Below are positions 38-4,800 of a stretch of DNA of 10,237 bases, one piece after another. A program made the translations under genes and the position numbers. Position 1 is the stretch's first letter; every line of letters begins with the position of its first letter. A model generated the notes under the pieces. The model saw only the letters and a program-made list of their open reading frames with translations. It was not told the DNA's origin and searched no databases. The stretch spans positions 1 through 10,237 of the forward strand of contig CAZPLO010000035.1 in assembly GCA_964587725.1 (NCBI GenBank), in the 5' to 3' direction. This DNA is from an uncultured archaeon (GTDB taxonomy: Archaea > Altiarchaeota > Altiarchaeia > IMC4 > SCGC-AAA252-I15).

Positions 38-844
38 TCACTTTACCTGGTACCAGAAGCTGATGACCTGCGGCTTATCCCCTCCTTCCTTCAGGAGGGT
101 GGCTTTGAAGATGTCTACTGGGCTCTTATAGACTCTGGAGACTTCGCTCAAATCCAGCTCCAAATCATCCTTCGCAACAGACAACACCACACTCCCCGAA
201 GTCACACGCCGGTAGTCAACCTGGGTGCTGCTGTCACTGTACTCCATCCTGTAAGGTCTGGTGCGGAGGTCATCCAAGGACATGTTCAAATTCAGGATGT
301 CGCCGAACACCTCATGCTCCTCCCAAAACCTGCCCACCAACACGGAAGGTGGCATGTAGGCGTCGGTGAATTCGCCGCGTTCGCCCAACCAGCTGTCCGA
401 TGTAAGGTCGTAGATTTCACGGCTCGACCGGCTTTCACTGTGGCTGTACACCCACTTGCTGTCGTCCGTCGGCGATAATGTGTAAGAGAAGGTGCGGTTC
501 TCACCAGGGTTCAAGGTGAAAGACTCCTCCTTGCTGAGAAGGCGGGAGTCGACCAAAAGGTCGTAGGAGGTCTTTCCCGCCTCACTGCAGACTACCGTGA
601 AGGATACTTTATAGGATTTGCCGACGTCCAAGACGTTCAATGCTTCACCGTCTACTTTACCGTACTTCAACGCCGCATCCGGGTCCGGCAAATCAGACAA
701 ACGGGTGAAGTAGATTTCAGTGGAGCCGGTGAAATGCGTGAACGCCTGATACGCGATGAACGCACCCACAATGACGACACACACGACCAAAAAACCAACA
801 ACTATTTTGGTGTCGCGGTCGAGTGAAGACAGCTTCTTACCCAT
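38..844 (-). CDS. Membrane-anchored hypothetical protein, DUF1616-like extracellular domain
   Basis: 268-aa ORF with ATG start, basic N-terminus and one hydrophobic helix (IVVGFLVVCVVIVGAFIAY). Motif order TEIYF / VGKSYKVSFTVVCSE..SYDL / FTLNPGENRTFSYTLSP / FKATLLKEG..QVISFWYQV resembles archaeal DUF1616 as recalled; no search run. Confidence 0.7.
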   Translation of the reverse strand: MGKKLSSLDRDTKIVVGFLVVCVVIVGAFIAYQAFTHFTGSTEIYFTRLSDLPDPDAALKYGKVDGEALNVLDVGKSYKVSFTVVCSEAGKTSYDLLVDSRLLSKEESFTLNPGENRTFSYTLSPTDDSKWVYSHSESRSSREIYDLTSDSWLGERGEFTDAYMPPSVLVGRFWEEHEVFGDILNLNMSLDDLRTRPYRMEYSDSSTQVDYRRVTSGSVVLSVAKDDLELDLSEVSRVYKSPVDIFKATLLKEGGDKPQVISFWYQVK

Positions 845-982: not shown

Positions 983-1867
983 TTGCGTGATATTGTGGGC
1001 CACAGACAAGTATTGAGCGGGCTGGTTTTGACTGCGTTTTTAGTGTTTTCCATCCACACGGTGTCTTCGTCTGTTTTAACCGGGCAGGTGGAGGTGCCGA
1101 ATTCGCCGCCGGGGATAGCTTCTGTAACGTTGCACGACTCCGACGGGGGCACCATACAGTTGACGGCCGGCAGCGACGCAAACATCCTATACTGCGACGC
1201 TGTGGTAACGGACTTGAACGGCTACGGGGACGTCAACCAAAGCTGGGGGGTCATATACAACGGCACCAACATGGCGGCGGCGGCAGACAGCAACGAACGA
1301 TACGACAACAGCAGCTGCGTACTGTCGGAGGGAGCCGGAAACCAAATATACGTGAACTGCTCGTTCACGGTCCAGCACGAGGCCGTGAACGGCACATGGA
1401 CGTGCAACATAACCGTGAACGACAGCAGCGACGCAGTCAACGCCACCACAGGCACCAACACGGTGGATGAAATCACCGGAATATCCATCCTGGAAAGCTC
1501 ACTCGACTTCGGCACCCTAGCGTTAGGGGGAGAGAGCAGCGGCGGAAACAACACCCAGGTAACCAACCAGGGGAACGTCGTAATAGACATACGGGTGAAC
1601 GGCACAGACTACGGCTGCACCGGCCAAGGGACCATACCGGTCAACAACACCCGATACAGTACGTCGGACGGCGGCTGGGCAGGGATGAGCCTGAACCTAA
1701 CCCACACGCCAACAACGGAGACAGGGTTCGACCTCGGCATAGAAGGCATAGCAACAGCAGACGGAACCAACTCCACAGCAGACGAGTACTGGACCATAGC
1801 CATACCCGGCTCCGGAGTCTCCGGAACCTGCACCAACAACATCCAAATAACCGGGACAGCAGGCTAG
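983..1867 (+). CDS. Secreted two-domain beta-rich glycoprotein; candidate major fimbrial/fibre subunit
   Basis: 294-aa ORF (TTG at 983, or GTG at 995 as an alternative start). Sec-type signal peptide ending about VSS|S, no TM anchor, 6 Cys and 13 N-x-S/T sequons counted by eye. Aligns end to end with the C-terminus of the giant ORF. The CDS is secure; the function is inference. Confidence 0.85.
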   Translation: MRDIVGHRQVLSGLVLTAFLVFSIHTVSSSVLTGQVEVPNSPPGIASVTLHDSDGGTIQLTAGSDANILYCDAVVTDLNGYGDVNQSWGVIYNGTNMAAAADSNERYDNSSCVLSEGAGNQIYVNCSFTVQHEAVNGTWTCNITVNDSSDAVNATTGTNTVDEITGISILESSLDFGTLALGGESSGGNNTQVTNQGNVVIDIRVNGTDYGCTGQGTIPVNNTRYSTSDGGWAGMSLNLTHTPTTETGFDLGIEGIATADGTNSTADEYWTIAIPGSGVSGTCTNNIQITGTAG

Positions 1868-1873
1868 AAACTG

Positions 1874-1925
1874 TTTTATTAACCGAAACCCAAATATATT
1901 GGATTAATAATCCCGGTTAAAAAAA
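1874..1925 (+). promoter_or_regulatory. AT-rich intergenic element with putative BRE/TATA and nested inverted repeats
   Basis: CGAAA (1884-1888) then AAATATAT (1892-1899) about 30 nt before the ATG at 1927; palindrome GGATTA-A-TAATCC (1901-1913); outer inverted repeat TTTTATTAACCG (1874-1885) / CGGTTAAAAAAA (1914-1925), 11 of 12 matching. Confidence 0.5.
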
Positions 1926-1926
1926 A

Positions 1927-3102
1927 ATGGGTGATGTACGACTACAGGCTGGCCTGATACTACTGGTTCTAGCAGCCAACGCAGCCGCCGTCAGCCTCGG
2001 CGTCAGCCCCAGCAACATAGAATTCCGGGACGTGTTGAAAGGCGGGTACGCGGAAGGCACCGCCACCATAAGCACCTCCAGCCCCGAACCCGTGGAAATA
2101 AGTTTGTCGGTGGGAGGGGAAGCGCGGGACTGGATAACGCTGGGGGAAACCACCTTCACACTCGAACCAAACAGCAGACACGGCGTCAAAGTCATGGTCG
2201 AGCCGCCGGCGGACGCCCCCAACGGAGCATACAAAGCCTCGGTAACAGCCAAGACCCGGCCGCCCGCGGAAGGCCAGCAGGTGATGGGGGCCATCATCAT
2301 CACCGCCGTGGAAATGCAGGCCACCATCTCCGTGACGGGAGACCAGATAATAGACTACGAAGTCCCGTCCGTGCAGGTGAAAGACACCGAGGAGGGGCAG
2401 CCCATAGAATTCAACATCCGCGTGGACAACAGAGGAAACACCCGCATCACACCGCAGATACGCGTGGACATCATGGATGAAGCCTCAACCATAAAGTCCC
2501 TCGACCACGGCGAAACAGAGATACTGCCCACCACATCCGAAAACATACTACTGAAAGTAGACAACGACCTCCCCATCGGCCAGTACCGTGCGAAGGTGAC
2601 CGTGTCCGCGGAAGGCGAGCAGACACAGGAGACCGTGGGATTCGAGGTGTTGGAGAGAGGCAGCCTACGGCTGCAGGGGCAGCTGATAACCATCAGAACA
2701 GACAAGGTGTGGGCTACGGTCGGAGACGTCGTGGAACTCACCGCAGTGTTCAAGAACACCGGCCAACTCGTCGCGCCCGCCGTCTTCAAAGGGAAAGTGT
2801 ATTTGGACGACGACATAGTCGACGTCATAGAAGGCGATGAAATAGACGTCCCCGTCGGCGAAACAGCCGACCTCACCACATACTATAAACCCGGGCAACC
2901 CGGGAAATACAAGATAGTGGGTTGGGTATACTACAGCAAGAAAACCACCAAGGAAGGGTTCGTCATAGTCAACGTCCAGGACACCACCGAAACCACCCAG
3001 CCGCCGGCCACGGAAGAGAAGGAAGGCGACTCCACCCCATTGTACGCGGTCATAGCCGTGCTGGCCGTGGTAGTGGTTATCCTACTGTTCAGGAGGAAGT
3101 GA
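1927..3102 (+). CDS. Secreted multi-Ig-fold protein with C-terminal TM anchor; DUF916/PapD-like candidate assembly chaperone
   Basis: 391-aa ORF. Signal peptide (..ANAAA|VSLGVSPSNIEF), about three Ig/CARDB-like units (VEPPADAPNGAY; VDNRGNTRI..LPIGQYRAKV; FKNTGQL..PGKYKIVG), T/E/P-rich linker, TM helix LYAVIAVLAVVVVILLF and basic tail RRK. Family assignment is by motif resemblance only. Confidence 0.8.
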   Translation: MGDVRLQAGLILLVLAANAAAVSLGVSPSNIEFRDVLKGGYAEGTATISTSSPEPVEISLSVGGEARDWITLGETTFTLEPNSRHGVKVMVEPPADAPNGAYKASVTAKTRPPAEGQQVMGAIIITAVEMQATISVTGDQIIDYEVPSVQVKDTEEGQPIEFNIRVDNRGNTRITPQIRVDIMDEASTIKSLDHGETEILPTTSENILLKVDNDLPIGQYRAKVTVSAEGEQTQETVGFEVLERGSLRLQGQLITIRTDKVWATVGDVVELTAVFKNTGQLVAPAVFKGKVYLDDDIVDVIEGDEIDVPVGETADLTTYYKPGQPGKYKIVGWVYYSKKTTKEGFVIVNVQDTTETTQPPATEEKEGDSTPLYAVIAVLAVVVVILLFRRK

Positions 3103-4531
3103 ACCTGCTCCGCTTCAGGTAGGCGGTCAACAGCACAGCCAAACCCAACACCGCCAATGCGGCGGTAGCGTGGCCGCCGAACGCCGACCCCGGGCCGCTG
3201 CCGAACCCGATCCTCGGAAGCCTCTCCCTAGGATTCAGCAGATGGCTTAACTCCACATCCCCCGTGGACTCGTCCACCACCACCGGCAACGTGGTCGTCG
3301 TGGTCCGGTTCAACCGCACAACCAGCGTCTTCACCGTGGAAACATTCGCCACAGGACACGGTGGAACATCCACTACTACAGAGCCTTCCTCGAACCCGCC
3401 GCGGAACGCCTGGATCCTGTGCACCCCCACCCGGTAGGGGGTGAAGGCTACGCGGCCGAGGCGGTCCGTCCGCGACGAAAACAGAATGCTGCCGCCATAG
3501 TACACGTCCACGTGCACGTCACGGACCGGCTGGTCGCGGGCGGACACCGTCACAGACACCGGCTCCCCAACGCAGGTGTAGTTCACCTCCACCGTCAACG
3601 GAGTCCTCACCGACTGCACCCGCTGACCCGCCGGCGGGCGGTTGGTGCCGCCGGGGGTCGGCGACTGAACGCTCCACGCGTCCCCGCCGTCGACGTCGCG
3701 GCCTATGCTCTGATGTAGGGTGCTGTCGTACACGGTGCCGCCTATGGTGTCGCCGTCCTCGTATGTGAAGTTGTCGACTTTATAGTCAGTGTAAACCAGC
3801 TCCACCTCGTCGCCGCCGGGGTCCAAGGTGATGCCTGATTCGCTGCTGGAAAACGACTTGAACCCCCCCGCCGGTATGACTCCGGAGAGGTTGAAGGCGG
3901 CGGCCGCCGACACTCCGCCGGCCGCTCCAAGACGCCATCCTGTGACGTCCACGCCGTATGATTCGCTGTTGTAGAGTTCTATGAAGCTGTCGTTTCCGGG
4001 GCGGAACTCGTTAATCACCACCCGCGGCAGCCCATAGTATGTGTAGTCCGCGTTACCCCAGGTGAGGTTGCTGGCGACAGCGTATTCGCCGTCCAACACC
4101 TCCGCCTTCACCCGGTAATACCGTGGGGGAGAAGCGTATGCGGGGTGGCCGGAGTCCAAGCCCACCCTGCTAGGGTCCTGCACACCCATAACATGAGAGT
4201 AAGTGTATGTCGCAGACAGTTCTCCGCTGGATTCCAACACGGCGTTCACGTATGATTCGCCGAATCCGTCGAACGGCTGTTCGCTGTTGCTGTTCCACCT
4301 AACAACCTTCACCTTAACCGACCCGGAGCCGTTCACGCCGTAGGCGCCGTTGGGGTCCGACACGTTCACCCTAACATACACGGTCCTGTTGTAGGGGGCG
4401 GTGAAGCTGCTGGAGGAGGTTTCAACCGACTCTATCCTCGGCGGGCTGTTGAGCACGCTTATGGTCCCCGGGAGGGTGTCGCCGCACGCTAACCCCGCCA
4501 GCAGAAGAACCGCTAACGTTAAGGCCCTCAA
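3089..4531 (-). CDS. Cell-surface protein: N-terminal Ig-like domain, lamin-tail domain (LTD), small beta domain, Thr linker, C-terminal TM anchor
   Basis: 480-aa ORF with TTG start and a signal peptide ending about ACG|D. LTD hallmarks VVINEF..FIELYN..VDVTGWRL..IPAGGF..GDEVEL..SIGR..SPTPGGTN at about 3641-4027; TDRLGRVAF..GVHRIQA motif; TTTTTL linker; TM AALAVLGLAVLLTAYL followed by KRSR. Confidence 0.85.
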   Translation of the reverse strand: MRALTLAVLLLAGLACGDTLPGTISVLNSPPRIESVETSSSSFTAPYNRTVYVRVNVSDPNGAYGVNGSGSVKVKVVRWNSNSEQPFDGFGESYVNAVLESSGELSATYTYSHVMGVQDPSRVGLDSGHPAYASPPRYYRVKAEVLDGEYAVASNLTWGNADYTYYGLPRVVINEFRPGNDSFIELYNSESYGVDVTGWRLGAAGGVSAAAAFNLSGVIPAGGFKSFSSSESGITLDPGGDEVELVYTDYKVDNFTYEDGDTIGGTVYDSTLHQSIGRDVDGGDAWSVQSPTPGGTNRPPAGQRVQSVRTPLTVEVNYTCVGEPVSVTVSARDQPVRDVHVDVYYGGSILFSSRTDRLGRVAFTPYRVGVHRIQAFRGGFEEGSVVVDVPPCPVANVSTVKTLVVRLNRTTTTTLPVVVDESTGDVELSHLLNPRERLPRIGFGSGPGSAFGGHATAALAVLGLAVLLTAYLKRSRFTSS

Positions 4532-4598
4532 CTTCTTTTCATATTCTCCCCAGACCGTTAAATACCCGGCTCACGCCGTCCCGTCCGGTCCTGAGGGC

Positions 4599-4787
4599 TT
4601 ATCCGCCATCCTTCCCGGACAGCTTCCTAGTCCTCCCGGAAGGCAGGTTCAGCGTCTTCAACACGATGCTGTCGTCCACCACGTAGACGACGAACCGGTT
4701 GCCCGGGTTTATCCCCAGCTCATCCCGTATCTTGATCGGGATGACCACCTGCCCTCTCGTGGAGAGCTTAGTCAACTCTACTTCCAT
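4599..4787 (-). CDS. AbrB/MazE/SpoVT-family DNA-binding protein
   Basis: Signature TKLSTRGQVVIPIKIRDELGINPGNRFVV..DDSIVL. Start re-called to the ATG at 4787 (62 aa) because the ORF-track GTG at 4796 lies inside the GGAGGTGA ribosome-binding site. Confidence 0.92.
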   Translation of the reverse strand: MEVELTKLSTRGQVVIPIKIRDELGINPGNRFVVYVVDDSIVLKTLNLPSGRTRKLSGKDGG

Positions 4788-4792
4788 GCGTT

Positions 4793-4800
4793 TCACCTCC
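4793..4800 (-). promoter_or_regulatory. Shine-Dalgarno site of the AbrB-family gene
   Basis: GGAGGTGA on the minus strand with a 5-nt spacer to the ATG at 4787. Confidence 0.85.

Follow-up and report, generated by a model that had tools for sequence, protein, structure and literature searches.

A predicted N-terminal donor strand in a pilin-like protein and a membrane-tailed protein at an archaeal locus

Genes and features of the locus

The window, meaning the whole stretch of 10,237 nucleotides that was analysed, is contig C35 of the 1.56-Mb genome of an uncultured archaeon (92% complete). A 294-aa protein (983-1867, forward strand; start TTG 983 or GTG 995) is the predicted pilin. Its likely signal peptide (983..1069) ends at a V-S-S/S cut, inferred from the sequence and its relatives, and is followed by a predicted donor strand (1070..1099), an N-domain with a complete Ig-like fold (1100..1474) and a C-domain with two conserved Cys (1475..1864), which is likely a six-stranded, incomplete Ig fold with a predicted acceptor groove. 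Divergent from this gene is that of a 268-aa protein (38-844, reverse strand) with one N-terminal membrane helix and a CARDB-like region, which has no confident family.

The AlphaFold model of the pilin (mature 265 residues, 107 sequences) has a pLDDT of 96.6. The Ig-like domain (residues 15-132) is joined directly to a second sandwich (138-264), which ends on its final strand (258-264 by DSSP). Matches of the N-domain in VIA are to ICAM-1 and other Ig domains (model 11-135, Z about 9, rmsd 2.7). On the PapD-like chain 6fvi the alignment of the C-domain stops at residue 1777 (Z 8.2, rmsd 2.3), whereas that of a complete PapD-like domain runs to residue 1798, about 20 residues further. This suggests, indirectly, that the C-domain as modelled is without its last Ig strand and has a predicted open groove. 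In a Foldseek search with the whole model the highest TM among the matches listed went to CfaB pilin fusions (TMq 0.39-0.45), and no pilin, WxL pilin or TasA was found among the best 50 VIA matches of the whole model, which were filled by the N-domain. MI-APC covariation over 137 sequences did not recover the model's own hairpins.

The pilin had no Pfam or NCBIfam match and no significant sequence match in the PDB, and no common family was found among 107 relatives. Its two-domain module occurs in six of the 8,342 ORFs in the source genome, three of them stand-alone and three ending large proteins. Relatives numbered 861 at E<=0.001 among 1.84 billion representatives (50% identity), and the nearest Atlas clusters are without a name and mostly archaeal, with Nanobdellota the commonest. 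All three named genome loci that the pilin returned are from Altiarchaeota, the phylum to which the source genome likely belongs. One module protein (L061, 8966-11125) carries about 120 further residues after the C-domain, unlike most carriers, and a divergent pilin and giant pair with a C-domain that barely matches the main family (L097 and L098, in G056 C2 and G055 C55) forms a second subtype.

The next gene encodes a 391-aa protein (1927..3102, forward strand) with a signal peptide, a PapD-like domain, two further Ig-like domains and a C-terminal membrane helix, which is predicted to be a membrane-anchored chaperone. In its model (pLDDT 95.3) there are three Ig-like domains, the first of which bears a flexible hairpin loop (model 91-105). 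The chaperone gene is convergent with that of the 480-aa protein described below and their 3' ends overlap by 14 bases (3089-3102); the two genes run in the same direction in three other genomes.

The 480-aa protein (3089..4531, reverse strand) is predicted from its sequence, hhalign and its relatives to be a donor-only, membrane-anchored base, or terminator, subunit. A likely Sec signal peptide (4481..4531), with a TTG start and an inferred cut at A-C-G/D that relatives place at an equivalent site, precedes the predicted donor strand (4451..4480), which aligns with the pilin strand in hhalign and is also recognised by its profile score. An Ig-like domain homologous to the pilin N-domain follows (4037..4450; hhalign, and a pilin profile E of 5.6e-5 in the genome search), and then a Lamin tail domain (LTD) as cargo (3758..4027; PF00932, E 2e-8, residues 169-258), further domains and a likely C-terminal membrane helix (3116..3169) with a basic tail after it. 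The helix was read from the sequence and was missed by a hydropathy scan at its threshold; relatives have clear C-terminal helices. The pilin's second domain, and with it any candidate groove, is absent from this protein, which leaves it with a candidate donor only.

Immediately before this gene, a purine-rich, Shine-Dalgarno-like stretch and an ATG (4529-4553, reverse strand) open a four-codon frame whose TGA overlaps the TTG start. The arrangement may couple translation and so hold the base subunit at a low level. Assembly error was rejected as the source of the out-of-frame ATG, as the contigs of four of four runs showed no indel (one study; two of the runs may be the source).

Beyond it are a 65-aa regulator of the AbrB/MazE family (4599..4796, reverse strand; TIGR01439, E 3.3e-11), of which the other loci scanned held no close copy, so that it was dropped as a conserved part of the locus, and a giant secreted protein (4812..10237, reverse strand), the predicted tip adhesin. 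The giant's 5' end lies off the contig; it has at least 1807 aa, with two LamG domains, two DUF2341 domains and 78 sequons, and it ends in a pilin module (4815..5552, reverse strand; 274 columns aligned with the pilin at 36% identity, E 1e-42) that is predicted to be an acceptor only, without a free donor strand. Elsewhere in the source genome, a 2,485-aa ORF that is open at both contig ends (C39:2-7456, forward strand) contains, eight times over, the repeat domain found ahead of the module in the giant, and may be more of the giant or another giant adhesin. In G055, a 6,136-codon open frame ending in a pilin module (C7, upstream of 1509-2264, reverse strand) lies directly before an anchor gene.

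A strand and Ig domain common to two proteins

The original prediction held that the 480-aa and 294-aa proteins begin, once mature, with the same strand. The two stretches concerned are DTLPGTISVLNSPPRIESV (4424-4480, reverse strand; residues 18-36 of ORF 3089-4531) and SVLTGQVEVPNSPPGIASV (1070-1126, forward strand; residues 30-48 of ORF 983-1867). They proved to be identical at ten of 19 residues, in register and with 10 residues before NSPP, a level of identity that was never attained when the first 70 residues were shuffled 1000 times. The proposed pattern x-x-L-x-G-x-[VI]-x-V-x-N-S-P-P-x-I-x-S-V has exactly two matches, both at the expected sites, in the six-frame ORFs of the genome (1,428,803 residues), for a chance expectation of 2e-7; since the pattern was derived from these very sites, evidence from the family weighs more than the count. 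A second proposed motif, V[ST]DxNG, was likewise found in all three proteins (as VTDLNG, VSDPNG and VSDSNG).

The homology is wider than the peptide. In hhalign, the N-region of the 480-aa protein matches the strand and Ig domain of the 294-aa protein with a probability of 91.2 (E 1e-6, 124 columns), and over its first ~150 residues the 480-aa protein copies the pilin's N-terminal strand plus Ig domain. Profiles were required to see this; a pairwise BLASTP comparison did not pick up the N-terminal similarity. The motif is thus common to both proteins because the whole strand-plus-Ig region is homologous, and not as an isolated peptide. Among 82 stand-alone relatives, counted from the conserved Pro, position -7 is hydrophobic in 80% and -5 in 90%, and Asn is conserved at -3. 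The Gly of the proposed pattern is not a family feature (13 of 82); position -9 is G, A, S or T in 68%. Scored against the family, the strand of the 480-aa protein reaches 6.9 bits over 10 columns, in the top 0.17% of 17,513 background 10-mers, but 2.7 bits over 8 columns, with Pro at -10, which makes it a genuine yet middling member.

Two findings would have spoken against a free strand. The first, cleavage inside the motif, is not what we see: in both proteins, as well as in their relatives, the inferred cut directly precedes the motif, judging by small-x-small sites that the relatives keep. The second was a strand that folds back as an ordinary intramolecular A-strand; in the AlphaFold model of the 294-aa protein, no strand pairing involves residues 1-14. 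The giant had been said to lack the strand, and none is present in register (-2.9 bits). Just upstream, however, is a look-alike, VTDAVNVSIV, that scores 6.5 bits if shifted by 5 residues. It forms the end of the internal repeat domain that is repeated in the C39 frame, and is therefore likely occupied.

Searches of 60 other genomes of the phylum with the N-region of the 480-aa protein returned seven close relatives (E below 1e-49) and one weaker. All eight of these close or near relatives adjoin a pilin-module or chaperone gene, and their cargo domains differ. More distant anchored proteins are mostly away from pilin genes (regions of 2.5-9 kb), including a second one in the source genome, on C16. 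That protein (L004, 3313-4302) is of the donor type, with 330 aa, Cys-rich repeats and a C-terminal helix, and has orthologue-like genes in G013, G016, G018 and G004.

Predicted assembly and alternatives

The strand-plus-Ig homology of the two proteins, the module at the C-terminus of the giant and the clustering of the genes are observed. Taken together with the models, they make it probable in our view that the locus encodes an archaeal (likely Altiarchaeota) chaperone-guided donor-strand pilus, composed of a pilin, a membrane chaperone, the giant as tip adhesin and, as a donor-only base, the 480-aa protein. Signal peptidase I is predicted to free the N-terminal strand, which would then fill the open groove predicted for the C-domain of the next subunit, and in this way copies of the 294-aa protein would join into a thin pilus. 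The membrane-tethered 391-aa protein may, by homology to ElrE/WxLIP, lend its own hairpin strand to the groove and pass subunits on. The remaining steps are drawn by analogy to Elr and Pam: the giant, as an acceptor only, would start the fibre and sit at its tip, pilins would be added from the base, and the 480-aa protein, as a donor only, would terminate the chain and anchor the fibre to the cell. Its combination of a strand and a likely membrane tail with no groove domain would suit it to both tasks. The function of the pilus is likely adhesion.

Strand donation could instead build short complexes, in which a membrane-tailed donor holds one giant adhesin or a few subunits and no long fibre forms, comparable to the older static-platform model of WxL clusters. 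Several donor-type anchors per genome, many of them far from pilin genes (two in the source genome, four in G011), are consistent with this, as are the three large and three small module proteins of the source genome. However, among about 196 module-bearing proteins, of which 139 were registered on the conserved Pro and classed (the remainder being fragments or having no locatable Pro), the stand-alone form typified by the 294-aa protein is the commonest (82 of 139). It has both the strand and the groove domain, so open-ended chains are possible, and the equivalent WxL protein ElrD is described as polymerising (bioRxiv 10.64898/2026.10.17.759780). We consider short complexes unlikely.

It is less likely still that the strand has no docking role and is what domain duplication left behind, as an ordinary edge strand or a spacer that came with the Ig domain on its reuse. 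The motif does lie within a longer homology, junctions between Ig domains commonly show N-x-x-P after a beta strand, and 9 of 56 proteins that carry the module at the C-terminus score above 0. Against this, the strand is unpaired in the pilin model, it has the same length and pattern at the mature N-terminus of proteins of about 30% identity and of anchors with unrelated cargo, and it is lost in register when the module is internal. With duplicates removed, both -7 and -5 are hydrophobic in 62 of 79 stand-alone proteins as opposed to 11 of 56 C-terminal module carriers, and the leave-one-out profile exceeds 3 bits in 62 of 79 as opposed to 3 of 56; the proteins compared are kin, and the counts are not independent. 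Proteins with the N-domain only, which are mostly membrane-tailed, resemble the stand-alone form: of 28, 24 were registered (one row mis-registered by one, one a divergent pilin and one in the training set), and 23 of these 24 have hydrophobic residues at -7 and -5 and 17 exceed 3 bits, in a set of which many came from a genome search that included the strand columns. On sequence grounds, the strand is retained where a donor would be needed, in stand-alone and membrane-tailed proteins, and lost where it would not, in C-terminal carriers. This distribution, the unpaired strand in the pilin model and the presence in the locus of a membrane protein related to WxLIP and PapD support the original reading of the strand as a putative donor.

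The fibre might also be a donor-strand polymer that needs no chaperone, of the type of threads, cannulae or tafi; the 391-aa protein would then be a structural base or S-layer adaptor. Known archaeal donor-strand fibres are, in the available accounts, described without a PapD-type chaperone, and PapD-like folds serve as scaffolds too. Domain 1 of the 391-aa model matches SafB, FimC, PapD, CsuC and CfaA (Z 11.4-12.7, rmsd 2.1-2.8, single-domain matches), a likeness of fold only, and the non-chaperone PapD-like folds CEP192, HYDIN and MSP score as high as the chaperones. The sequence argues otherwise, as the 391-aa family is related to WxLIP over two domains that include the donor hairpin: with the family profile, WxLIP is the best of 177,635 PDB sequences (E 3.2e-5, across the hairpin). 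Domains 1-2 match WxLIP with a Z of 13.8, the rmsd of 12.4 being due to a hinge difference. At E<=0.01, PF11797 was matched by 9 of 44 family members and PF06030 by 3 of 44, all weakly; the WxLIP Pfam models did not match the window's own 391-aa protein, and PF06030 was not found in the source genome.

The 391-aa family is also tightly linked to pilin genes, often with several paralogues per cluster, and a fibre without a chaperone is accordingly improbable. The family occurs in 19 of 61 genomes and the full module in 17 of 61, with both in 15, and 13 of 19 chaperone regions hold a pilin-module gene. Four of the 19 chaperone genomes gave no pilin and two of the 17 pilin genomes no chaperone, in assemblies 74-87% complete. 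The chaperone alone gave no match as a query for related loci. A second cluster in the source genome (L003, 7736-16460, on C5) has genes for a large module protein, for three paralogues of the chaperone and for a pilin, after which come those of a KaiC-like ATPase and a small partner, and similar multi-chaperone layouts are present in G001, G013, G011 and G007. In three further loci (L051, 3433-7196; L083, 2872-5775; L084, 2322-5090) there are two chaperone paralogues in which the membrane helix is followed by an additional domain in the cytoplasm, and also anchors that combine two pilin-type Ig domains with a long tail on the cytoplasmic side; regulatory coupling is a possible role of these cytoplasmic parts.

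Finally, the 480-aa protein could be a lipoprotein cut at Cys16, with its N-terminus lipid-bound rather than a free strand, since LAGLAC precedes the motif, but none of the five relatives compared has a Cys there and the protein already has a likely C-terminal helix, so that we give this very little credence.

Beyond the chaperone-guided pilus itself lies a wider proposal, which we hold to be slightly more apt to fail than to stand. Here the system would be the first chaperone-dependent archaeal pilus, occurring across DPANN lineages, with a chaperone that shares its ancestry with Gram-positive WxL systems. The 10-residue strand would be a plug-in tag by which any strand-plus-Ig membrane protein could terminate the fibre, and cells would exchange both the giant tips and the bases, enzyme-like or binding, of a single polymer. 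Such a system, if real, would be a candidate means by which these archaea attach to surfaces or partner cells. As the pilin family is large and unannotated, it provides a testable handle on the attachment of uncultured DPANN archaea.

Comparison with known systems

The four roles of pilin, chaperone, tip and base have been described for two bacterial systems. One is the Elr/WxL pilus of Enterococcus faecalis, found only in Bacillota among 4,698 genera (bioRxiv 10.64898/2026.10.17.759780), and the other is the Pam pilus of Ca. Mycosynbacter amalyticus, found only in CPR (PMC13278184). If the chaperone-guided reading is right, the membrane-chaperone route to a pilus, so far shown only in bacteria, extends to Archaea, with a complete and small parts list (pilin, chaperone, tip and base) that could be rebuilt in a laboratory host. 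Outside subscription papers, we found no archaeal description of this family in the literature, and the supplements of the Elr and Pam reports could hold archaeal matches.

[quoted passage not shown] The arrangement of a pilin that is donor and acceptor, a tip that is acceptor only and a base that is donor only is seen here at the level of sequence and model. The donor patterns have a small-x-[VI] core in common, that of Elr being [S/T]-x-[G/A]-x-[V/I]-x-F; the last donor residue is V or I here and F in Elr. In contrast to Elr, the archaeal pilin is extended by a complete Ig domain and shows conserved pairs of Cys and numerous N-glycosylation sequons, the chaperone has three domains and the base is a folded, multi-domain membrane protein. 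No WxL domain (PF13731) was found in the source genome (92% complete; Lactococcus control positive) or among the 25 families listed for 107 pilin relatives, no LPxTG was found at the C-terminus of the 480-aa protein, and no sortase (PF04203) in the source genome.

The likeness to Pam is one of architecture only. Both have two-domain pilins, TM-anchored PapD-like chaperones (several per operon) and no usher, and Pam has a predicted TM-anchored terminator, PamR, with an N-terminal strand (PMC13278184). The Pam donor strand is a linker between the N- and C-domains, whereas here the unpaired strand is N-terminal and one domain follows directly on the other. Chaperone-usher pili (type 1, P, CFA/I and Csu) share the PapD-like chaperone fold and an N-terminal extension with alternating hydrophobic residues. 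Their chaperone is soluble with two domains and their pilin has a single domain, as opposed to three domains plus a TM helix and a two-domain pilin here, and no outer-membrane usher (PF00577) was found in the source genome (E. coli control positive). Without a WxL domain, a sortase or an usher, and with a predicted N-terminal donor, the archaeal system falls outside the Elr/WxL, Pam and chaperone-usher classes by their defining features.

Archaea have donor-strand fibres of their own in tafi (PMC11821415) and threads (PMC9715654), which are described without a PapD-type chaperone. A donor-only cap, Saci_0405, is proposed for threads (PMC9715654), and for tafi a TM anchor, TafF, is proposed together with Tat export and a peptidase of its own (PMC11821415). 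In strand exchange TafF is an acceptor, whereas the 480-aa protein would be a donor. No twin-arginine motif was found in the signals of the 294-aa and 480-aa proteins, and no peptidase family among the six window ORFs scanned, the window ending inside the giant. The best reading is that the archaeal system works like the Elr/WxL and Pam pili but belongs to neither.
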